A program made the position numbers and the translations under genes. Shown here in pieces: positions 2,879-14,936 of a stretch of DNA of 25,602 nucleotides. The notes beneath the pieces were generated by a model. It did no database searches. It had not been told where the DNA came from and saw nothing but the letters and a program-made list of their open reading frames with translations. This stretch comes from Gemmatimonadota bacterium (GTDB lineage Bacteria; Gemmatimonadota; Gemmatimonadetes; Gemmatimonadales; GWC2-71-9), in NCBI GenBank assembly GCA_039930625.1, contig JBDTTN010000001.1:1-25602 (forward strand), read 5' to 3'. Position 1 is the stretch's first letter. The number at the start of each line of letters is the position of its first letter.

Positions 2879-3001
2879 GAGTTCCGAGTTCCGAGTTCGA
2901 TATCCGGAGGATCGGCGCAGGGGATTGGAATTCGATGCTCGGCCTCAACCCGGAACTCGCAACTCGGAACTCGGAACTCGGAACTCGGAACTCGGAACTC
3001 G
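2879..3001. repeat. Heptamer inverted/tandem repeat element A (GAGTTCC x3, spacer, CGGAACT x7)
   Basis: gagttcc gagttcc gagttcg at 2879-2899; cggaact units at 2951-2999 (one unit cgcaact). The arms are reverse complements. Confidence 0.95.
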
Positions 3002-3004
3002 AAT

Positions 3005-4558
3005 CTACATCACCCGCAGATCCCGACCGGTCATCTCCGGAGGCGGTTCGATGCCGAGGAGACGAAGCACGGTGGGTCCGACGTCACACAGCGCGCCGCC
3101 ATCGCGGAGACCGCGAGCCCCGGCGCGGATCGCCACCAGCGGCACCGGGTTGGTGGTGTGGGCGGTGTGCACGCCACCGGTGGCCGGATCGATCATCTGC
3201 TCGCAGTTGCCGTGGTCCGCGGTGACCAGCACCGTGGCGCCCGCCGCCTCCGCGGCGGCGAGCACGCGGGCGAGACAGCGGTCTACCGTTTCCACCGCGG
3301 TGATCACCGCCGGGAGCACGCCGGTGTGGCCCACCATGTCGGCGTTGGCAAAATTGCAGAGCATGAAATCGTGGGCCTTCCGCTCGATCGCCTGCACCAG
3401 CACATCGGTGATGCCGGCCGCGCTCATCTCCGGAGCGAGATCGTAGGTCGCTACCTTCTGCGAGGGTACCAGCGAGCGCTCCTCGCCCTTGTACGGCGGC
3501 TCATAACCGCCATTGAAGAAGTAGGTGACGTGCGGGTACTTCTCGGTCTCCGCCGTGCGCAGCTGGGTACGGCCGTGATTGGCCAGGACCTCCGCAACGA
3601 TCTTCGCCATGGTGAAGGGCGGGAATGCCTGCGGCACCGGAAAGGTCCGGTCGTACTGGGTCATGGTGACCATCGCGAGTCGCGGGCGACCCGAGACGTC
3701 GAACCCGTCGAAGCCTTCGATCATCAGTGCCCGGACGATCTGCCGCATCCGGTCGCTGCGGTAATTGAAGCAGAAGACCCCATCGCCGTCGCGGAGCGGC
3801 GCGACGGGGGCCCCGTCCCGCTGCAGGACGATCGGTTTCACGAACTCATCGGTTTCGCCCCGCGCGAGCGCCGCCTGCACCGCGGTCGCGGCATTGTCGG
3901 CGGGCGCGCCGATGCCGCGTACTATCGCATCGTAGGCGATCCGGGTTCGCTCCCAGCGGCGGTCCCGGTCCATGCCGAAGTAACGCCCCACCAGCGAGGC
4001 GATCACCGCCTTGCCGGGCGCGAGTCGCGCAATGTCCTGCTCGAGCTGTCGTACTACCTGTGTGCCGATCGCGGGGAGAGTGTCCCGCCCGTCGAGGAAA
4101 CCGTGAATGGCGATGCGGGGCACCTCGGCCCGGACGCCGAGTTCGATGCAGGCGAGCAGATGCTGGTCGATGGCGTGCACTCCGCCGGGCCCGAGCAGGC
4201 CGACGAGATGCAGGGTGCCGCCGCTCTGCTTCAATTGCGCGCAGAGGGCGCGGAGCGGCTCGAGCTGGAAGAACGATCGGTCGGCGATGCTCTGGGAGAT
4301 GCGGACCAGGTCCTGCGGAACGATACGCCCGGCGCCGAGGTTGAGGTGTCCCACCTCGGAGTTGCCCATCTGGCCCTCGGGTAATCCAACCGGGAGTCCG
4401 CTCGCGTGGAGAAGGGTACGCGGCTGACTCGCCCAGAGCCCATGCCAGATGGGCGTTTGTGCCAGTTCGATCGCGTTGCCTTCACGGCCTTCCCGGTAGC
4501 CCCAGCCGTCCAAAACGACGAGGATCACCGGACCCGCCGGCCCGTGCGTGTTTGACAT
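3005..4558 (-). CDS. gpmI: 2,3-bisphosphoglycerate-independent phosphoglycerate mutase
   Basis: VLDGWG, GQMGNSEVGH (catalytic Ser), AETEKYPHVTYFFNGG, NFANADMVGHTG, TADHGNCE, HTAHTTNPVP. Confidence 0.98.
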   Translation of the reverse strand: MSNTHGPAGPVILVVLDGWGYREGREGNAIELAQTPIWHGLWASQPRTLLHASGLPVGLPEGQMGNSEVGHLNLGAGRIVPQDLVRISQSIADRSFFQLEPLRALCAQLKQSGGTLHLVGLLGPGGVHAIDQHLLACIELGVRAEVPRIAIHGFLDGRDTLPAIGTQVVRQLEQDIARLAPGKAVIASLVGRYFGMDRDRRWERTRIAYDAIVRGIGAPADNAATAVQAALARGETDEFVKPIVLQRDGAPVAPLRDGDGVFCFNYRSDRMRQIVRALMIEGFDGFDVSGRPRLAMVTMTQYDRTFPVPQAFPPFTMAKIVAEVLANHGRTQLRTAETEKYPHVTYFFNGGYEPPYKGEERSLVPSQKVATYDLAPEMSAAGITDVLVQAIERKAHDFMLCNFANADMVGHTGVLPAVITAVETVDRCLARVLAAAEAAGATVLVTADHGNCEQMIDPATGGVHTAHTTNPVPLVAIRAGARGLRDGGALCDVGPTVLRLLGIEPPPEMTGRDLRVM

Positions 4559-4580
4559 GACTCTCCGGCGTTTCTACAAT
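4552..4580 (+). promoter_or_regulatory. Near-consensus sigma70 promoter TTGACA-N17-TACAAT
   Basis: TTGACA at 4552-4557 (overlapping the first gpmI codons), 17-nt spacer, TACAAT at 4575-4580, and GTG start 7 nt later. Confidence 0.8.
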
Positions 4581-4587
4581 CGAGGTC

Positions 4588-5574
4588 GTGCGAGACGCGC
4601 CACAATCTACTTCGCCCCTCTGCCGCCTACCAGCCTTGGCGGCTGTTCTCCTCACACTGCTCGCGACATCGCTCGCGGGGCAGGCCACCCTCCGGCTTGC
4701 CCAGCAGACCCGATTCACCAAGGTCCCCGGCGGGGCCGCGCTCGGAACGCTGCAGGTCGGCGCCGAAGTTACGCCCGGCAGGACCTCCGGCGCGGCGACC
4801 GAGATTGCCCTCGAGGGCTGGTTCCCCTCTGCCTCCCTGGGGCCGATGAAGCGCGATGGCTTCGATGTCGCCGTCTCGAAGCGACCTTCGGAGCTGCTGC
4901 GCCAGGCACCCGACGGGCCGGCCACCGCCAAGGTCTCCCCCGGTGTCGGCTTCATCAAGGTGGAGACCCGCGGCACGTGGACCCGGGTGAAGCGCACCGC
5001 GTGGGTCGATCGCAAGGCGCTGCAGGCGGTCTCAACGCCCGTGGTGCAGCAGGTCACCGGCCCCGATCAGGCGGAGGTGACCCAGAAGTCGGCGCTCGCC
5101 ATCGTGCCCGGTGGCGCGACAGTGGGGTCGATCGACTCCGGTGCCGGTGCGCGCGTGCTCGCGCACTCCGGCGGATGGAGCCGCATTCAGGTCGAGGCCT
5201 GGGTGCCGGACAGCGCGCTGCGGCCGACCGATCGCAGCGTACTCGTCGGTCTGAGCCAGGCCGAGGTCCGTGCCAATCCGGCGAAGTATGTGGGTCAGGT
5301 GGTGGAGTGGCGGGTGCAGTTCGTCGCCATCCAGAAGTCGGATGAACTCCGGCCGGAGATCCCCGAGGGATTGAACTATCTGCTCACCCGGGGGCCGCTG
5401 CCCGAGCCGGGGTTCGTCTACATCATCATCCCGTCGTCCGCGGTGGCGCAGTTCCAGGCGGTGCCCGCGCTGCGGGAACTCACAATCCGCGGTACCATCC
5501 GCTCCGCCACCACAAAGTACCTGCCGACTCCGGTGCTTGAGCTGGTCGAAGTGGTGGCGGGGCTGGGCAAATAG
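4588..5574 (+). CDS. Exported hypothetical protein with three SH3b-like repeats and a possible C-terminal OB-like domain
   Basis: Signal-like segment (LAAVLLTLLATSLAGQ); three ~45-50 aa beta-rich units each ending W-x4-L (GWFPSASL, AWVDRKAL, AWVPDSAL); GC-biased codon usage. Domain names are inferred. Confidence 0.75.
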   Translation: MRDAPQSTSPLCRLPALAAVLLTLLATSLAGQATLRLAQQTRFTKVPGGAALGTLQVGAEVTPGRTSGAATEIALEGWFPSASLGPMKRDGFDVAVSKRPSELLRQAPDGPATAKVSPGVGFIKVETRGTWTRVKRTAWVDRKALQAVSTPVVQQVTGPDQAEVTQKSALAIVPGGATVGSIDSGAGARVLAHSGGWSRIQVEAWVPDSALRPTDRSVLVGLSQAEVRANPAKYVGQVVEWRVQFVAIQKSDELRPEIPEGLNYLLTRGPLPEPGFVYIIIPSSAVAQFQAVPALRELTIRGTIRSATTKYLPTPVLELVEVVAGLGK

Positions 5575-5611
5575 TTCGGGCGGGAGGGTAACCTTTTCGG
5601 GTACGAGGCCG

Positions 5612-5617
5612 TACCTT
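5612..5617 (+). promoter_or_regulatory. Candidate -10 box TACCTT, 6 nt before ATG 5624
   Basis: g-TACCTT-ctgcct-ATG; no Shine-Dalgarno in between. Confidence 0.5.
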
Positions 5618-5623
5618 CTGCCT

Positions 5624-6007
5624 ATGAACGATCTCCTCAAGCAGCGCATCCTCCGCCGGCTCGAGAGTCTGCCGGACGAGCGCGCCTACCAGATTCTCGA
5701 TTTTGTGGAATTCCTCGAGAGCAAGTACGCCGAGCGCGCCGCACCGAGCGGAATTCTGGCCCGGATCACCGATACCGTCGAAGACACCATGCGCGCGGCG
5801 AAGCTGCCGGTGCAGGCGATCAGCGGCACGGTCGGTGTGATGGACAGCGCCAGCCGGATTATGAAAGGCCTCGCCGCGGCGGGGCAGGCCGTGGTGGACG
5901 AGGCGGTGAAGGCGGCCAAGCCGACCGCCGTCAGCCCGCAGCCGTCCGGGCCGAACCCCCAGGTCCCGCCCGCTCCCCCTCCCTCGCCGTTGAAGGCCGA
6001 CGGCTGA
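5624..6007 (+). CDS. DUF2281-like small protein with Pro-rich tail (127 aa)
   Basis: Start set at ATG 5624. LESLPDERAYQILDFVEFLESKY resembles the DUF2281 signature (LPxxxxxEVLDFIEFL). Confidence 0.75.
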   Translation: MNDLLKQRILRRLESLPDERAYQILDFVEFLESKYAERAAPSGILARITDTVEDTMRAAKLPVQAISGTVGVMDSASRIMKGLAAAGQAVVDEAVKAAKPTAVSPQPSGPNPQVPPAPPPSPLKADG

Positions 6008-6032
6008 AGGCTCACCGCTGATGGCTGATTCA
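5920..6032. repeat. Heptamer inverted/tandem repeat element B (GCCGTCA-like x4, spacer, TGANGGC-like x6) overlapping two CDS ends
   Basis: gccgacc gccgtca gcccgca gccgtcc (5920-5947); tgaaggc cgacggc tgaaggc tcaccgc tgatggc tgattca (5991-6032). Confidence 0.75.
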
Positions 6033-7469
6033 GGCTCATCTCCCGCGACGGAATTCGTTCGCGGGATCGGTCCGATTGCGGCGATCTCAATGGTCGTCGG
6101 CACCATGATCGGGTCCGGCATCTTCATCGTCTCCGCCGATATCGGTCGGCAGGTGAACGACTGGGGACCGGGAGCGCTGCTGCTGATCTGGCTCATCACC
6201 GGACTGATGACGGTGACCGGCGCGCTGGCCTATGCCGAGCTCGCGGCCATGATGCCGGACGCCGGCGGACAGTATGTCTTCTTGCGCGAAGGGCTCTCGC
6301 CGCTGGTGGGCTTTCTCTTCGGATGGACCCTCTTCACGGTCATCCAGACCGGGACCATCGCAGCGGTCGCCGTAGCCTTCGGCAAGTTCCTGAGCGTGCT
6401 GGTCCCCGCCGTCACCCCCGACGTCTTCCTCTCCCTGGGGCATCTTCCGATGCCCGGCGGCGCCATCGAACTCGGCGTCTCGTGGCAGCGGATCGTCGCG
6501 CTCGTCATCGTGGCATCGCTCACCGCCCTGAACGTGCGCGGCGTAACGCTTGGCGCGAGGGTCCAGACGGTCTTCGCGGTGGCCAAGGTCGGTGCACTCG
6601 CGGCGGTCGTGCTCTTCGGTCTCACCCTGGCGCCGAAGGCGGCGGCGGTCGCGGGGCAGAGCTTCTGGGGCACGGGGAGCTGGAGCCTCGCCGTCATCCC
6701 CCTCTTCGGCGCCGCGATGGTCGGCTCGCTCTTCTCGGCGGATGCGTGGAACAACGTGACTTTCGCCGCCGCGGAGGTGCGCGACCCCAAACGCAATCTG
6801 CCGCTTGCGCTGGGTCTCGGCACCGCGACGGTCAGCGTGCTCTATCTGCTCGCCAATCTCGCCTACCTGAGGGTGCTACCCTTCGCCGGCGATCCCGCCG
6901 GTCTCGACGCACTCTCGCGCGGGCTGCAGCACGCGGCGCAGGATCGGGTCGGCGTCGCCGCCGCGGAGGTGATGTTCGGCCCAGTGGGCGGAGTGCTGAT
7001 GGCGGTCGCGATCATGCTCTCCACGTTCGGATGCGTGAACGGGCTGGTCCTCGCCGGACCGCGGGTCTACTACGCGATGGCAGAGGACCGGTTCTTCTTC
7101 TCGCGCGCCCGCGAGTTGCACCCGACCTTCAAGACCCCGGTCTTCGGCCTGGTGGCGCAGGCGGCATGGGCGATGGTGCTCTGCCTGAGCGGGAGTTACG
7201 GCAACCTGCTCGACTACGTGATCTTCGCATCGCTGCTCTTCTATTTCTTCACCGTGCTCGCGCTCTTCCGCCTCCGCGCCACCCGACCCGACGTACCTCG
7301 GCCGGTCCGGGCATTCGGCTATCCTGTCGTTCCGGCGCTCTACATGGCGGCCGTGTTCCTGCTGATGGTGATCCTCCTCTTCGAGAAGCCGCTCTACACC
7401 TGGCCCGGGCTGGTCATCGTGGCGCTGGGGGTGCCGGTGTTCTATCTCTGGCGCCGCGGTGCGGCCTGA
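6021..7469 (+). CDS. APC-superfamily amino acid permease (LAT/SteT-like)
   Basis: [11 protein letters not shown] (TM1), [38 protein letters not shown]; about 12 hydrophobic segments. Confidence 0.93.
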
Positions 7470-7478
7470 CCCCGCGCC

Positions 7479-7508
7479 TTGCGCCCCCCCAGTGCCGGGC
7501 CGTAAACT
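7479..7508 (+). promoter_or_regulatory. Candidate sigma70 promoter TTGCGC-N18-TAAACT upstream of guaB
   Basis: TTGCGC at 7479-7484, TAAACT at 7503-7508. Confidence 0.55.
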
Positions 7509-7513
7509 TCAGG

Positions 7514-7552
7514 ATGGAACTCCAAATTCAATTCGGAACGCCCGCGTCATGA
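7514..7552 (+). other. Possible 12-aa upstream ORF ([12 protein letters not shown]) whose stop overlaps the guaB start
   Basis: ATG 5 nt after the TAAACT box; TGA at 7550-7552 overlaps guaB ATG 7549-7551 (ATGA). Confidence 0.3.
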
Positions 7553-9006
7553 GCACCATCCGCCCCGGACTGGCGCTCACTTTCGACGACGTTCTGCTGA
7601 TCCCGCGCCACTCGACGGTCCACCCTCGCCTGGTCTCCGTCCAAACCCGACTCACGCGCACTATTTCGCTCAACATCCCGCTGGTGTCCGCCGCCATGGA
7701 CACGGTGACCGAAGCGGAGATGGCCATCGCGATGGCCCGTTACGGCGGGATCGGCGTGGTCCACAAGAACATGTCGGTCGAGAAGCAGGCCGCGGAAGTA
7801 GACCGGGTGAAACGCAGCGAGAGCGGGATGATTCTCAACCCGATCACGCTGACCGCCGACCGGCCGCTCCGGGAAGCGGCGGCCGCGATGGCCCGGTTCC
7901 GCATCTCCGGGGTGCCGATCGTCGACCAGGCGGGGAAGCTGGTCGGCATCATTACCAACCGGGATCTGCAGTTCGAGCGGAATCTCGATCAGCCGATCCG
8001 AGAGGTGATGACCAAGGACAAGCTCGTCACCGCACCGGTCGGCACCGGACTGGATGAGGCCGAACGTATTCTTGCGAAGCACCGGATCGAGAAGCTGCCG
8101 GTGGTGGATGCGAAGGGCCTGCTCAAGGGACTGATCACGGTCAAGGACATCTTCAAGCGGAAGCAGTTCCCCGACTCGAACAAGGACCAGCACGGCCGGC
8201 TGCGGGTCGCGGCCGCGGTCGGTGGCACGCCCGAAGCGAGGATTCGCGCCCAGGCGCTGCTCGATGCCGGAGCCGATGCCATCATTATCGACTCCGCTCA
8301 CGGCCACAGCGACGGCGTGCTGCAGACCGTCTCCCTGCTGCGTGAGGCGTTCCCCGATGCGCAGCTCATCGCGGGCAACGTGGCCACCGAGACTGCCGCG
8401 CGCGAGCTGGTGCGGCGCGGAGTCGATGCGGTGAAGGTGGGTGTCGGTCCCGGGAGCATCTGCACCACCCGGGTGGTCACCGGCGTCGGAGTTCCGCAGG
8501 TCACCGCAATCGTCGATGCGGTACGCGGAGCGGGTGATATCCCGGTGATTGCCGATGGAGGCATCAAGTATTCCGGTGATGTCGTGAAGGCGCTGGCGGC
8601 CGGAGCTTCGTCAGTGATGATGGGCTCGATGCTCGCCGGCACCGACGAAAGCCCGGGGGAGTCGATCCTCGCCGAGGGTCGGCGGTTCAAGGCGATCCGT
8701 GGCATGGGAAGCCTCGCTGCCATGCAGGAAGGCTCCGCCGACCGCTACTTCCAGGAAGGGGAGCTCTCCAGCTCCAAGATGGTCCCGGAAGGAATCGAGG
8801 GACGGGTACCCTATCGTGGTGCCGTCGGCGAGGTGCTCTTCCAGATGGTCGGTGGACTCCGCAGCGGCATGGGATATTGCGGCGTCGATACCATCGAGGC
8901 GCTCGGGCGCGACGTGGAGATGGTGCAGATCACCAGCGCGGGCCTGCGCGAATCGCATCCGCACGACGTGCACATCACCCGGGAAGCACCGAACTACAAC
9001 GTGTGA
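7549..9006 (+). CDS. guaB: IMP dehydrogenase (with CBS pair)
   Basis: Start set at ATG 7549 ([17 protein letters not shown]). [26 protein letters not shown] (catalytic Cys), [27 protein letters not shown]. Confidence 0.98.
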
Positions 9007-9015
9007 GAAACGGCT

Positions 9016-9101
9016 GTTAGCCATTGGCCGTAGGTCTCTCGGACCGGCCAACAGCCAACGGCTAACGACCAACGGCTAACGACCAACGGCTAACGACCAA
9101 C
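9016..9101. repeat. Heptamer inverted/tandem repeat element C (3 inverted units, loop, 8 RGCYAAC-like units incl. GGCTAACGACCAAC x3)
   Basis: gttagcc attggcc gtaggtc (9016-9036); ggccaac agccaac (ggctaac gaccaac)x3 (9046-9101). Confidence 0.93.
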
Positions 9102-9133
9102 GGCTCTACTCCCAACATTCAGCACGGGGCGCC

Positions 9134-10621
9134 ATGAGTCTCTGGGCAACCAAGTCCATCTCCGCACTGCGCGCCGAGGCGGATGCCGCCGGCGGGCTTC
9201 GCCGCACCCTGGGCCGCGGCGGCCTCACCGCGATCGGAATCGGCGGCATCATCGGCGCCGGGATCTTCGTACTCACGGGGCAGGCGGCGGCGTTGCACGC
9301 CGGCCCCGCCGTCCCGATCTCCATGATCCTGGTGGGTATCGCCTGCGCCTTCGCCGGGCTGTGCTACGCCGAAATGGCCAGTGCCGTTCCCGTCGCCGGC
9401 AGCGCGTACACCTACGCCTACGCCACCATGGGTGAGCTGGTGGCCTGGATCATCGGGTGGGACCTGGTGCTCGAGTATGCCGCAGGCGCCTCCACCGTGG
9501 CGGTCGGGTGGTCGGGCCACCTGGTGTCGCTGCTGCGGCTGTTCGGAATCACCCTCCCGACGACGCTCACCACCTCTCCCACCGCGTGGTGCACTGCGTC
9601 GAATGTCGCTGGCGGGATGGCGGGATGTGCGCGAGAGGGGCTCAACTTCACCGGGGCACTGGTGAATCTGCCGGCGGTACTGATCGTGGCACTGGTCTCC
9701 ACGGTGCTGGTGATCGGCATGAAGGAGTCGGCGCGGGTCAACACCACGATCGTGATCATCAAGGTGGCGATCGTGATTCTGGTCGCTGGGACCGGACTCT
9801 TCTACATCACGCCGGCCAACTGGCACCCCTTCATCGCCCCGAACACCGGCGAATGGGGAACCTTCGGCTGGTCCGGTGTGCTCCGGGGCGCGGGGCTCGT
9901 CTTCTTCGCGTACATCGGCTTCGACGCCGTCAGCACCGCGGCACAGGAGGCGAAGGATCCTCAGCGCGACATGCCGTTCGGCATTCTCGGCTCCCTGGCG
10001 ATCTGTACCCTGCTCTACGTGGTGGTCTCGGCGGTGCTGACCGGCATGGTGCCATACGGCGAGCTCAATAACGCCGCCCCCACATCGTACGCCCTGGAAA
10101 AGGTCGGGGCACCGTATTTCATCCGGCTCCTGGTTGACATCGGTGCGGTGCTCGGCCTCGCGTCGGTGGTGCTGGTGATGCTGCTCGGTCAGTCGCGGGT
10201 ATTCTATTCGATGTCCCGGGACGGGTTGCTCGGGGAGTGGGCCGGCAAGGTGCATCCGAAATTCCGCACTCCCTACCTCTCCTCGATCTACACCGGGATC
10301 GCGGTCGCCATCGCCGCCGGAGCATTGCCACTGCAGCTGCTGGGGCAACTGGTGAACATCGGGACCCTGCTCGCCTTTGTGCTGGTGAGTGCCGGCGTCT
10401 GGATCCTGCGCGTCAAGCGTCCCGATCTCGAGCGGCCGTTCCGGACGCCGTGGGTGCCGTTCGTGCCGATCATGGGCATGCTCTGCTGCTTCGGCCTGAT
10501 GCTCACCCTTCCCGCCGATACCTGGATCCGGCTCGCGGTCTGGCTGGTCATCGGCCTGGTGATCTACTTCTCGTACGGCCGCCGGCACAGCCGGCTGCAA
10601 CTGGAGCGGTCTTCGCGGTGA
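9134..10621 (+). CDS. APC amino acid permease (CAT/YhdG-like)
   Basis: GIGGIIGAGIFVLTG, CYAEMASAVPVAGSAYTY, FFAYIGFDAVSTAAQEAKDPQRD, RPFRTP. Confidence 0.95.
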   Translation: MSLWATKSISALRAEADAAGGLRRTLGRGGLTAIGIGGIIGAGIFVLTGQAAALHAGPAVPISMILVGIACAFAGLCYAEMASAVPVAGSAYTYAYATMGELVAWIIGWDLVLEYAAGASTVAVGWSGHLVSLLRLFGITLPTTLTTSPTAWCTASNVAGGMAGCAREGLNFTGALVNLPAVLIVALVSTVLVIGMKESARVNTTIVIIKVAIVILVAGTGLFYITPANWHPFIAPNTGEWGTFGWSGVLRGAGLVFFAYIGFDAVSTAAQEAKDPQRDMPFGILGSLAICTLLYVVVSAVLTGMVPYGELNNAAPTSYALEKVGAPYFIRLLVDIGAVLGLASVVLVMLLGQSRVFYSMSRDGLLGEWAGKVHPKFRTPYLSSIYTGIAVAIAAGALPLQLLGQLVNIGTLLAFVLVSAGVWILRVKRPDLERPFRTPWVPFVPIMGMLCCFGLMLTLPADTWIRLAVWLVIGLVIYFSYGRRHSRLQLERSSR

Positions 10622-10649
10622 ATCTCCGGTTGCGTGGCGCAGTCCCCGC

Positions 10650-10666
10650 GGGCGCACCGTGCGCCC
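10650..10666. other. GC-rich hairpin between the tandem permeases (GGGCGCA-ccg-TGCGCCC)
   Basis: Perfect 7-bp stem with imperfect outer pairing (ggttgc 10628-33 / gcaatc 10672-77); no U tract. Confidence 0.5.
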
Positions 10667-10700
10667 AGCGTGCAATCCCTCTTACCAGGACTCCATTCTC

Positions 10701-12242
<1,542 letters not shown>

Positions 12243-12269
12243 GTCGCAGCCGCTCCCGCTGTGAGCCCG

Positions 12270-12316
12270 CAATGCCTGGTGCCCTTCGGCACCGGGCATT
12301 GTGCGTTCGGGGCACA
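12270..12316. repeat. REP-like double hairpin downstream of the permease pair
   Basis: CAATGCCTGGTGCC-cttc-GGCACCGGGCATTG (14-bp stem, one G.T) at 12270-12301, abutting TGTGC-gttcggg-GCACA at 12300-12316. Confidence 0.6.
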
Positions 12317-12361
12317 GTGCGAGGCGCCTGCCGCGCTCTTTCCCGGCCCGGCCCCTTGTCT

Positions 12362-12367
12362 TACTTT
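12362..12367 (+). promoter_or_regulatory. Candidate -10 box TACTTT, 8 nt before ATG 12376
   Basis: t-TACTTT-cccgcccc-ATG; the leader has no A or SD-like purine run. Confidence 0.45.
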
Positions 12368-12375
12368 CCCGCCCC

Positions 12376-13395
12376 ATGACCGACCTGCCCCCGGACCGTC
12401 TCGCCGCCGCTCGCGCCTTTGCCACGACCTTTCAGCCCGGCCAGCGGCTCTGCATAACCACCCACGTCAATCCCGACGGCGATGGGCTCGGCAGCGAGGT
12501 CGGCCTGATCCACCTGCTCAAGGCGCAGGGGATCGACGCGTTCGTGACCAATCCGTCACCCACGCCAGAACGCTACCGATTCCTCTTCCGCGACCTTCCG
12601 GGGGTCGATCGCACGCAGGAGGCGGTGAAGGAACTGCGGAAAGCGGACCAGATCCTGGTGCTCGATATCGCCGATGTCGATCGCCTCGGCATGCTCACCC
12701 AGACGGTCGTGGCCCGCGGGGTGCCGGTGGCCTGTGTTGATCATCACGTGAGTCAGGGACACCTGCCCGATGGCGCGCGCTATGTCGATCCCGAGGCTTC
12801 GGCTACCGGTGAGCTGATCTATCAGATCGCGATCGCCAACGGGTGGCCGCTCACCCCGCTGGCGGCCCGCGCGCTCTACGTCGCGATCCTCACCGACACC
12901 GGCGCGTTCCGATTCAGCAATACCAAGCCGGCAGTGCTCCGCGCGGCAGCCGCGCTGCTCGAGGCCGGACTCGATCCGGAGCAGATCTATCTCGACGTGT
13001 ACGCCAGCGCCCCGGAGGGACGGGCCCGGCTGCTCGCGGAGACGCTGCAGACCCTCGTGGTCGAGTCCGACCACGGTCTTGCCTGGGTGACCGTCCCCCC
13101 CGGCGCACTGGAGCGGCTGGGGGCAACGGCGGACGACCTCGACGGTATCGTCGAGGTCCCCCGGAGCATCAACGGAATCCGCATGGCGCTGCTCTTCCGG
13201 GAGATCGCCGCGGGACGAGTGAAGGTGTCACTCCGATCGGTGGGCACCGTGGATGTGGCGGAGTTCTCCCGCCCCTTCGGTGGGGGTGGCCATACCAAGG
13301 CCTCGGGGCTCTCCATGGAGGGGTCCCTGGCGACAGTCCAGGCCCGCGTGCTGGCGGCGGCAAGGGAGTATCTTTCGGCGGACAGCAGCCGCTAA
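12376..13395 (+). CDS. nrnA: DHH/DHHA1 bifunctional oligoribonuclease / pAp phosphatase
   Basis: HVNPDGDGLGS, LVLDI, VDHH, DTGAFRF, RVKVSLRS, GGGHTKASG; start set at ATG 12376. Confidence 0.9.
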   Translation: MTDLPPDRLAAARAFATTFQPGQRLCITTHVNPDGDGLGSEVGLIHLLKAQGIDAFVTNPSPTPERYRFLFRDLPGVDRTQEAVKELRKADQILVLDIADVDRLGMLTQTVVARGVPVACVDHHVSQGHLPDGARYVDPEASATGELIYQIAIANGWPLTPLAARALYVAILTDTGAFRFSNTKPAVLRAAAALLEAGLDPEQIYLDVYASAPEGRARLLAETLQTLVVESDHGLAWVTVPPGALERLGATADDLDGIVEVPRSINGIRMALLFREIAAGRVKVSLRSVGTVDVAEFSRPFGGGGHTKASGLSMEGSLATVQARVLAAAREYLSADSSR

Positions 13396-13417
13396 CGTGG
13401 AACAGGATATGGCAGTC

Positions 13418-13666
13418 ATGGCAAACACTGACGATCCCGAAGTGCTTCAGCGCATCGAGCGCACGCTCGATTCGCTCCGTCCATACATCGCATCGCACAA
13501 GGGCAGTGTCGAAGTCGTGGATTTCGATGATGTGCAGGGCCGCCTGCTGCTCCGCCTCGGCGGGACGTGTCACGGCTGTTCGGCCTCGACCATCACGCTG
13601 AAGCAGGGCATCGAAACCCGGCTCCGCGCCCTCGTCCCTGAAGTCAAACTGGTGGAAGCGATCTGA
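13418..13666 (+). CDS. NifU C-terminal (Nfu) domain Fe-S carrier protein (82 aa)
   Basis: LRPYIASHKGSVEVV, LRLGGTCHGCSASTITLKQGIE (CxxC); AGGA about 10 nt before ATG 13418. Confidence 0.92.
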   Translation: MANTDDPEVLQRIERTLDSLRPYIASHKGSVEVVDFDDVQGRLLLRLGGTCHGCSASTITLKQGIETRLRALVPEVKLVEAI

Positions 13667-13679
13667 CACTGAGAAGCGC

Positions 13680-13775
13680 CGAGTTCCCAGTACCGAGTTC
13701 CGAGTGCACGCAACCAGCTCGGTTCCCGGAACCCGGAACCCGGAACCCGGAACTCGGTACTCGGAACTCGGAACT
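13680..13775. repeat. Heptamer inverted/tandem repeat element D (CGAGTTC-like x4, spacer, CGGAACY x7), same unit family as A
   Basis: cgagttc ccagtac cgagttc cgagtgc (13680-13707); cggaacc x3, cggaact, cggtact, cggaact x2 (13727-13775). Confidence 0.95.
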
Positions 13776-13802
13776 TGAGACTCCGTAAGGAACAGCCAGA
13801 AG

Positions 13803-14936
13803 ATGTCGAATGATCTGTCCGCCCGTGTGGCCGCAGCCCTCTCCCGCATCCAGAACCCGCGGCTCGAGAACGACCTGCTCTCCGCCGGCATGGTCCGCGA
13901 TCTCGTCGTCACCGACGACGGCAAGGTCTCATTCACGTTTCTGTTGTCACGCGAGGATCCTGCAACGCTGGTGCGTGAGGCCCGCGCAGCAATCCGGGCC
14001 ATCGAAGGGGTGAACCCGCAGGAGATGCGGATCAGCGTCGTCGATCCGGGCGGCCCCGCCAGGAGCACCCATGCTCCCCCGGGACAACCGGCCCCGGGCC
14101 AGACTCACGGGCAGGCCGGTCTGGTGACCCCGCCGCCGCAGCCTTCGGAGTATCCCAGCCTCGGCCGGATCATCGCGGTTTCGTCAGGCAAGGGCGGGGT
14201 GGGCAAGTCGACCGTCACGAGCAACCTGGCGGTGGCGCTGGCTCAGAAGGGCTACCGCGTCGGGCTCATGGACGGGGACGTCTACGGACCGAACATCCCG
14301 CGGATGTTCGGCCTCTTCGAGAAGCCGCCGGTGATCCAGGGCAAGATCCAGCCGCTCACCGCCTGGGGCGTGAAGCTGATGTCGATCGGCTTCCTCATCG
14401 ATCGCGACGCGGCGGCCGTCTGGCGCGGTCCGATCATCATGAAGATCGTGCAGCAGTTCCTGCGGGATGTGGAGTGGGGGGAGCTCGACTATTTCCTGGT
14501 GGATCTCCCTCCCGGCACCGGTGATGCCCAGCTCTCGCTGGTGCAGTCGTGCCAGGTGGCGACGGCCGTCATCGTCACCACGCCGCAGGAGGTCGCCGTG
14601 GGCGACGCTCTCCGCGGCGCCAAGATGTTCGAAAAGGTGGGCGTGCCCGTAGCCGGCATCGTCGAGAACATGAGTGCCTTCGTCGACCCGGCGACCGGCG
14701 TCCGCCTGGAGATGTTCGGCTCTGGCGGCGGTCAGCGCCTCGCCGATGAGCTGCACGTCCCACTGCTCGGCAGCGTGCCGCTCACTCCGGGGCTCACCGA
14801 CCTCGCCGACCGCGGCAAGCCGATCGTGGTCGCGGAGCCCTTGAGCCCCGCCGCGACCACCCTGGTCGCGATCGCCGCCGCCCTGGTCGCCGCGGTCGGA
14901 CAGGTCTCGGTGGCGCTACCCATCATGCACGGGTGA
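13803..14936 (+). CDS. mrp: Mrp/NBP35 (ApbC) family P-loop ATPase with N-terminal MIP18/DUF59-like domain; lacks CxxC
   Basis: SGKGGVGKST, DGDVYGPNIP, WRGP, DLPPGTGD, TTPQEVA, ENMS. Confidence 0.92.
   Translation: MSNDLSARVAAALSRIQNPRLENDLLSAGMVRDLVVTDDGKVSFTFLLSREDPATLVREARAAIRAIEGVNPQEMRISVVDPGGPARSTHAPPGQPAPGQTHGQAGLVTPPPQPSEYPSLGRIIAVSSGKGGVGKSTVTSNLAVALAQKGYRVGLMDGDVYGPNIPRMFGLFEKPPVIQGKIQPLTAWGVKLMSIGFLIDRDAAAVWRGPIIMKIVQQFLRDVEWGELDYFLVDLPPGTGDAQLSLVQSCQVATAVIVTTPQEVAVGDALRGAKMFEKVGVPVAGIVENMSAFVDPATGVRLEMFGSGGGQRLADELHVPLLGSVPLTPGLTDLADRGKPIVVAEPLSPAATTLVAIAAALVAAVGQVSVALPIMHG

Follow-up and report, generated by a model that had tools for sequence, protein, structure and literature searches.

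Inverted heptanucleotide arrays between genes of a Gemmatimonadales bacterium and their association with S23p cassettes

A 25,602-nt stretch of DNA from a Gemmatimonadota bacterium (contig JBDTTN010000001.1, positions 1 to 25,602; hereafter the window) carries, between its genes, short tandem arrays of 7-nt units that face an inverted partial copy of themselves across a small loop. Four such elements, A to D, were described within 11 kb in an initial annotation made from the letters alone, which saw in them a structure-defined class of hairpins with one short and one long arm. What kind of element are these hairpins, and which of their features are fixed when the repeat units themselves differ from one to the next? 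We addressed this in the genome that contains the window (G000), in its relatives and in other phyla. G000 is a Gemmatimonadales metagenome-assembled genome (MAG) of 3.1 Mb in 551 contigs, with 67% G+C and 78% completeness; its DNA is 77-80% identical to that of Gemmatimonadales MAGs across 2-3 kb, and its sequence was found in rhizosphere and soil DNA runs only. Tandem arrays were called with Tandem Repeats Finder (TRF), arms were taken from an inverted-repeat search, and stem stability was expressed as folding z-scores.

Heptamer hairpins in the window and across the genome

Elements A, C and D were borne out as heptamer hairpins by both the TRF arrays and the inverted-arm matches. In element A, a 5′ arm of (GAGTTCC) x2.9 at 2879-2898 (TRF, 100% matches) is separated by a non-repetitive loop of 48 nt (2899-2946) from a 3′ arm of (GGAACTC) x7.9 at 2947-3001 (TRF score 96, 93% matches), and the 20-nt 5′ arm is 100% complementary to the 3′ arm in three registers shifted by 7 nt. 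The 3′ arm ends 3 nt from the stop codon of iPGM (3005-4558, minus strand), and the spacer is bounded by that stop at 3005 and by the start of a co-directional gene of 239 aa at 2859. Element C begins 6 nt past the IMPDH stop at 9006 with a 5′ arm of GTTAGCC/ATTGGCC-type units (9012-9034, inverted repeats), followed by a 3′ arm of (GGCTAAC GACCAAC) x3.6-4 at 9045-9105, with a period of 7/14 (TRF period 14, 100% matches, score 102); the arms are 84% complementary between 9016-9034 and 9048-9066, and the next gene, an amino-acid permease, is co-directional. Element D starts 12 nt past the stop of a NifU-like gene at 13666, with a TRF-called 5′ arm of GAGTTCC-type units (x3.9, 13679-13705) and a 3′ arm, likewise called by TRF, of (GGAACCC) x4 and then (GGAACTC) x3-4 (13718-13783). 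Its arms are 88% complementary over 32 nt, and a co-directional Mrp/ApbC-like gene begins at 13803. Each of the three elements occupies the whole spacer between two co-directional genes. Their sense RNAs fold at -59.8 kcal/mol for A (z -5.3), -58.3 for D (z -5.65) and -34.5 for C (z -2.3), and the antisense RNA of C folds better than the sense RNA (z -4.7).

The same design recurs throughout the genome. At a TRF score of at least 50, G000 contains 50 period-7, 24 period-8 and 2 period-6 arrays, and at a score of at least 40 the period-7 arrays number 87; GGAACTC/GGAACCC, GACGGCT/AACGGCT and GGGAAAC-type units recur among them. An inverted partner, defined as a complementary match of at least 14 nt within 200 nt of the array, accompanied 29 of 60 strong period-7/14 arrays, as compared with 3 of 48 period-21 (coding) arrays. 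Neighbouring period-7 arrays formed 30 inverted pairs versus a single direct one. These pairs represent 29 unique hairpins with mutually unrelated loops of 6-143 nt, most of them lying wholly between genes as called by our own crude caller, which is based on G+C content at third codon positions (GC3) and covers 90% of the genome. A class defined by its structure, with the period and the inversion kept and the unit sequence left free, is therefore present genome-wide, far above chance.

The short-arm/long-arm design fared differently. The short arm comes first on the plus strand in the window only: on the contig strand, 14 hairpins across the genome are short-first and 16 long-first, and relative to transcription, 11 hairpins in co-directional spacers are short-first and 9 long-first. 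The genome-wide search thus upheld the inverted partner, found at about half of the strong arrays, and showed the arm order to be random. Arm lengths also vary between the copies that sister species carry at orthologous sites, so that the asymmetry of the arms is no conserved feature; unequal arms are the outcome expected of independent slippage in two arrays. The units, in turn, have a strict polarity. In G000, GAGTTCC forms the 5′ arm and GGAACYC the 3′ arm in 17 of 17 cases, GGGAAAC-type units the 5′ arm and GTTTCCC the 3′ arm in 9 of 9, and GTCAGCC/GTTAGCC the 5′ arm and GGCTGAC the 3′ arm in 4 of 4, and this polarity is identical on reading either strand. Period, inversion and unit polarity are what stays fixed, not the arm asymmetry. 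The same polarity prevails in other phyla: for (GGAACTC) arrays of at least four copies, the GAGTTCC partner lies upstream in 19-20 cases and downstream in 3-4.

The location at gene 3′ ends, also noted for the window, mirrors the fact that co-directional spacers are the commonest kind. The hairpins, 0-20 nt from their flanking genes, lie in 20 co-directional, 3 divergent and 3 convergent spacers, with a background of 1852, 309 and 299, respectively; since this split is that of the background, the hairpins are not tied to gene 3′ ends.

Two further observations concern these loci. A distinct palindromic element with a core like GTCATCCCGAGCGAAGCGAGGGATC is found in the longest loops (C204:3348-3472, C360:1324-1466 and 2193-2318); it has 15 matches in G000 with up to 4 mismatches, and it also lies in the NifU-Mrp junction of the relative G011 (L139). 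In rhizosphere runs, contig depth rose about tenfold at the bins containing A and D (93x and 105x at window positions 2901-3301 and 13728-14128, versus ~8x). These spikes are likely collapsed repeats, with heptamer arrays at many loci in many organisms of the sample. The contigs assembled from four rhizosphere runs (Logan) are short and end at the arrays, and copy numbers are unreadable from them.

S23p cassettes, repeat period and repeat unit

A profile search detected two PF05635 (S23p) genes in G000, on contigs C538 and C448, and both lie in the loop of a heptamer hairpin. The C538 cassette consists of (GKGTTCC) x15, the open reading frame (ORF) and (GGAACTC) x4, and has the unit family of A and D; the C448 cassette consists of (AGCCGYC) x7, the ORF and (GCTGGCG) x7, and has the unit family of C. 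The 3′ arm of C shares its unit family with the arms found in the "MQDFRNL" clade of S23p as well. No PF05635 ORF is present in the loops of A, C and D themselves (10-48 nt), and the loop of A has no similarity to other loops or to the leaders of S23p cassettes. Both proteins match TIGR02436 (four helix bundle protein), one of them has a weak match to Avd, and the C538 protein matches PDB 2GSC (five chains, pentameric) with an E-value of 1.8e-14.

The bracketing of S23p genes by inverted arrays is also seen elsewhere in the order. In 27 of its genomes, inverted arrays with a period of 7, 8 or 9 bracket 36 of the 51 PF05635 genes, and nearly each cassette has its own unit. The 5′ arm is the G-rich one in 29 of 33 S23p cassettes (binomial p ~1e-5), as it is in 21 of the 26 hairpins without a gene. 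In the protein tree, one clade of 22 rows (support 99/98) has period 8 or 9, and the remaining bracketed clades show period 7. For 35 labelled rows, the tree requires just 2 switches between period 7 and period 8/9; this was matched by 0 of 500 label shuffles for each period label and by 0 of 200 shuffles for all labels together, indicating that the repeat period is a trait of the S23p clade. In addition, S23p genes with GAGTTCC/GGAACTC arms from Chloroflexota, Hydrogenedentota, Myxococcota and another member of the Gemmatimonadota are placed in one clade with the C538 gene (support 100/99).

The repeat unit itself changes in concert between the cassette and the rest of the genome. In at least five species (G000, G011, G010, G003 and G018), a C538-type cassette occupies one orthologous locus whose flanking genes are shared, and G017 and G004 share just part of the flanks. 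The cassette arms at this locus have the unit AACTCGG in G000 and G011, CACTAAG in G010, TACTAAG in G003 and G018, where one outer GGAACTA unit is retained, and CACTGGG in G017 and G004. The arm units form a stepwise series, in which both arms are altered together. In 7 of the 7 genomes with the locus, the cassette unit is that of an abundant genome-wide family: GGAACTC has 52 matches in G000 and 113 in G011, versus none in G017 and G004, whereas GGGCACT has 141 in G017 and 48 in G004, versus none in G000 and G011; GCACTAA has 88 matches in G010, and GTACTAA variants are found in G003 and G018. Even a minor GGGCCCT variant of G004 is present in the cassette and in dispersed arrays alike. G010, G003 and G018 retain a GGAACTC population besides, which is the older one.

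Some S23p genes and arrays lie outside these patterns. The cassette of Geobacter sp. AOG1 (L028, 6700-7500) has GGAACTC/GGACCCC arrays in reverse polarity, with GGAACTC first, and its S23p protein falls outside the clade with GGAACTC arms. An S23p clade with the N-terminal sequence SDFKKL (G025 and G029; L167, L168, L189, L190, L193 and L200) reaches up to 8 copies per genome and is without bracketing arrays; it is a natural control group for tests of S23p function. G000 also holds 33 period-8 arrays (GGCGATTG/GCCCAATC and GGCGGTTG families) of up to 18 copies, mostly without an inverted partner, on contigs C63, C78, C91, C94, C301, C357, C371, C548 and others, and cassettes with those very period-8 units are present in the relatives G002 and G005.

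Turnover among relatives and candidate explanations

Synteny around the window is conserved across the genus. Among relatives, heptamer hairpins at junctions A and D are confined to the three closest species, whose genes have ~83% nucleotide identity, and their copy numbers differ: the orthologous D arms, with ~4+7 units in G000, have 5+4 (G010), 5+2 and 5+3 units across these species. Extra unit families also appear at these junctions, namely a nested AGTGCCT/AGGCACT in G010 and AGTACTA in G003. In members of the genus further away, the spacers at A and D are plain and 1-57 nt long. The array at junction C is present in G000 only, and two other species have unrelated short repeat hairpins there. 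Across 39 genomes of the genus, (GGAACTC)x3 had 7-186 matches in 10 genomes (at least 40 in nine of them), a single match in two and none in 27; its distribution is all-or-none.

Element B (5920-6032, plus strand) was rejected as a member of the family by the same comparison. It spans the coding 3′ end of an ORF at 5537-6007, a 13-nt spacer and the start of a permease gene at 6021; its TRF matches reach only 67-70%, its inverted copy matches at 75% and its fold has a z-score of -2.2. The proposed long arm, made up of C-terminal codons, the stop, the 13-nt spacer and the permease start, is near-identical in the three sister species G010, G018 and G003, where the junction spacer is 13 nt as well and the 3′ half is conserved as coding sequence, whereas the proposed short arm is not conserved in these species. 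B is thus ordinary coding sequence with a conserved 13-nt spacer. The permease that follows it is one of three AA_permease_2 paralogues (6021-7469, 9134-10621 and 10659-12242) in one co-directional run interleaved with IMPDH, and the paralogue downstream of IMPDH varies among relatives. Elsewhere in the window, a near-consensus sigma-70-like site (TTGACA, 17 nt, TACAAT) is found at 4552-4580, in the divergent spacer between iPGM (minus strand) and a gene that begins at ~4588.

We favor, with moderate confidence, the reading that A, C and D are gene-less members of a population of S23p-linked foldback heptamer arrays, the copy numbers of which drift by slippage and the unit of which keeps pace with that of the cassette arms in each genome. 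Each foldback element pairs two inverted tandem arrays of a single 7-nt unit across a variable loop. An S23p cassette has the same hairpin design with a PF05635 gene in its loop, the product of which is a four-helix-bundle protein related to Avd of diversity-generating retroelements (DGRs); on this reading, the gene-less elements belong to the same evolving lineages as the cassettes. The copy number of each arm drifts independently, presumably by replication slippage, so that the short-arm/long-arm appearance would be incidental. The unit sequence would be homogenised within a genome, across cassette arms and dispersed arrays, and both arms switch in concert between species. The elements give stable stems as DNA and as RNA of either strand, without a terminator signal. 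S23p may recognise the periodic arms with about one subunit per unit, and for the dispersed arrays the cassettes may be the source or a reference. Rut-like (Rho utilization) RNA is the loading site of the termination factor Rho, and a G-rich arm in first place might avoid exposing C-rich, rut-like RNA before the partner arm is transcribed. The cost to the host would probably be small.

A stronger form of this reading, which we put forward tentatively and consider improbable as it stands, is that S23p pentamers are the sequence-specific partners of the repeat arms and measure their period. Each lineage would set its period (7 or 8/9 nt) and its unit, and would, together with host replication or recombination, spread and homogenise the unit across dozens of intergenic foldback arrays. 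If true, this would be a new kind of protein-repeat system that works without a transposase, a reverse transcriptase or RNase III, and S23p would be the first protein partner for the long-unexplained heptamer repeats of bacteria.

Several observations weigh against an S23p-linked population. About 80% of the arrays of at least four GGAACTC copies in other phyla have no partner within 1 kb. In G000, the GGGAAAC-type family and the 33 period-8 arrays are without a cognate S23p gene in the 78%-complete assembly; in G003 and G018, 160-186 GGAACTC matches are present, yet the two S23p cassettes of these genomes carry other arms. The loops of the gene-less hairpins share nothing with each other or with the leaders, trailers and ORFs of the cassettes, so that they are not simple deletion derivatives of cassettes and the arms alone are common to both. 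We found neither a transposase nor a target-site duplication or another route of movement, and no such duplication was definable at junctions A, C and D. A contrast in array content favors the link: five genomes without PF05635 (360 kb sampled) had 8 period-7/8 arrays, 1 of them with a partner, and five genomes with PF05635 (334 kb sampled) had 30, 24 of them with a partner. It is suggestive only, because the genomes (5+5) are related and the samples small. A simple rule of one S23p cassette per array family was also considered and rejected: it fails for the GGGAAAC and period-8 arrays in the incomplete G000 and for GGAACTC in G003 and G018.

The alternative that survives best, although we regard it as unlikely, dispenses with any role of S23p. 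The arrays would arise in place by polymerase slippage that favors 7-nt units, the inverted pairs would be retained as useful stem-loops of polycistronic mRNAs, acting, for example, as stability barriers or processing sites, and the S23p genes would merely lodge there. Heptanucleotide repeats are the commonest long simple sequence repeats (SSRs) in many prokaryotes, and slippage has been proposed for them (PMC4679880, PMC4692102). The differing copy numbers at orthologous sites, the position of A, C and D within co-directional gene runs and the strength of the stems, with z-scores down to -5.7, are all consistent with this account. We evaluated selection on the sense-strand RNA through the asymmetry between G-U and A-C. 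Of the 20 co-directional hairpins, 9 folded better on the sense strand and 11 on the antisense strand (mean difference, 0.8 kcal/mol), and thus there is no sign of selection on mRNA structure as such. The hairpins also occur in divergent spacers, at the background proportion. Moreover, slippage alone leaves the fixed polarity, the tie between period and clade, and the match between cassette and dispersed units unexplained, and the all-or-none distribution of the unit among congeneric species argues against it as well.

A regulatory role would require S23p to bind its cognate repeats in mRNA or DNA and to tune the neighboring genes, with the arrays as operator-like sites of a dispersed regulon. 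The period that tracks the S23p clade and the agreement between cassette and genome-wide units would fit such recognition, as would the relation of S23p to a pentameric protein (PDB 2GSC) and its weak similarity to Avd. The neighbors, however, are housekeeping genes with no relation to one another (iPGM, IMPDH, permeases, NifU and Mrp), the sites are unconserved beyond the closest species, unlike those of a regulon, and the copy numbers drift freely. We therefore consider this role distinctly unlikely.

The S23p genes known from intervening sequences (IVSs) of 23S rRNA suggest a different fate for the hairpins, namely excision from transcripts by RNase III. The hairpins share the design of IVSs with an S23p gene, of which that of Coxiella has strain-variable heptamers and a stem cut by RNase III (PMC4990558), and the stems of A and D reach 20-32 bp. 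We examined 66 genomes of the class that contains G000, every one except G000 at least 90% complete and several of them closed, together with 15 genomes from the other classes of the phylum. An RNase III domain (PF14622) was found in none of the 66, versus 14 of the 15, and neither TIGR02191 nor PF00636 had a match in five near-complete genomes of the class; this looks like a class-wide loss of rnc. Likewise, no rRNA was found at any of 20 S23p loci of the order. Taken together, the IVS analogy fits the design, but probably not the processing, and excision is very unlikely to account for the hairpins.

Termination, one of the RNA functions suggested in the initial annotation, has even less in its favor. 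The GC-rich stems directly past stop codons resemble intrinsic (Rho-independent) terminators or attenuators, but no U-tract or T-run follows the 3′ arms of A, C and D, no stem elsewhere is followed by a U-tract, and a terminator scan returned no terminator-like site at A, C or D. The spacers are tight and operon-like, and some are divergent. Since the hairpins lie in spacers of every orientation and lack U-tracts, they are not terminators, and a terminator or attenuator role is highly improbable. A search of Rfam returned no family at the gathering score, only chance matches to microRNA hairpins far below the threshold.

The templated process envisaged in the initial annotation, if of the reverse-transcriptase type, would have a telomerase-like or DGR-like enzyme, partnered by S23p in the manner of Avd, lengthen the two 3′ ends of a break by copying a short template. 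This would account for the complementary arms, the tandem units, the independent arm copy numbers and, in 29 of 33 cassettes, 5′ arms that are G-rich on either strand. It is the least probable of all, because RVT_1 is present in 2 of 39 genus genomes and missing from the other 37, including every array-rich one.

Relation to known repeat systems

Heptanucleotide repeats have been known since 1990 as the short tandemly repeated repetitive (STRR) sequences of cyanobacteria and since 2007 as the most frequent kind of long SSR in prokaryotes, and we know of no established function or origin for them. The STRR sequences of Calothrix and Nostoc comprise several unrelated 7-nt units per genome, in tandem and between genes, as do the arrays of G000; they are described mainly as direct arrays, whereas about half of those in G000 form inverted pairs. 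Few paired arrays are reported in Nostoc (PMC4692102). The class of heptamer SSRs is traced to the cyanobacterial STRR sequences and the survey by Mrazek (cited in PMC4679880 and PMC4692102).

Single heptamers in many intergenic tandem arrays, with a patchy distribution, are known as TAACTGA in Beggiatoaceae (PMC4679880) and as GGACCGG in Geobacter (PMC2700814). These are almost all direct and often lie just upstream of start codons, whereas G000 has inverted pairs in spacers of any orientation. The IVSs of 23S rRNA in Coxiella and Leptospira, which contain an S23p ORF and, in Coxiella, strain-variable heptamers (PMC4990558), share with both G000 cassettes the terminal inverted repeats and the long stem around a PF05635 ORF. 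A, C and D differ from them in having the stem without the ORF, in lying between protein-coding genes rather than in rRNA, and in belonging to a class without detectable RNase III, the enzyme that excises IVSs.

Repetitive extragenic palindromes (REPs), bacterial interspersed mosaic elements (BIMEs) and REPINs are, like the G000 hairpins, dispersed between genes, paired in inverted orientation, numerous and lineage-specific. REPs, however, are single imperfect palindromes of conserved sequence, whereas the G000 arms are tandem units, and no Y1 transposase (RAYT, PF01797) was found in the 78%-complete G000. MITEs, which are miniature transposable elements with inverted repeats, have a conserved internal sequence and a target-site duplication, in contrast to the unrelated loops of A, C and D and their junctions without a definable duplication.

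The closest likeness is to the GGGAATC repeats of Xanthomonas, where 70-75 convergent pairs in two genomes were described as possible stem-loops or cruciforms (Rehm et al. 2015, PMC4692102). As in G000, they are tandem 7-nt units in inverted arrays, mostly intergenic, their length and sequence vary between close species, and the G-rich array comes first; unlike them, the G000 units GGAACTC and GGCTAAC do not form G-quadruplexes. A, C and D show the features of this class of inverted heptanucleotide pairs, with at least 3 tandem copies, a convergent partner and an intergenic, variable location. The window elements thus belong to a known but unexplained repeat class and are no new kind of element. 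The Xanthomonas paper draws no link to S23p, and our literature search found no paper linking inverted heptamer arrays to PF05635 genes, whereas in G000 and its relatives the units match and change with the arms of the S23p cassettes. To this class we add the tie between repeat period and S23p clade, the concerted units of cassettes and dispersed arrays, and the absence of RNase III from the class and of reverse transcriptase from the array-rich genomes, which removes the mechanisms usually invoked from the IVS and Avd analogies.

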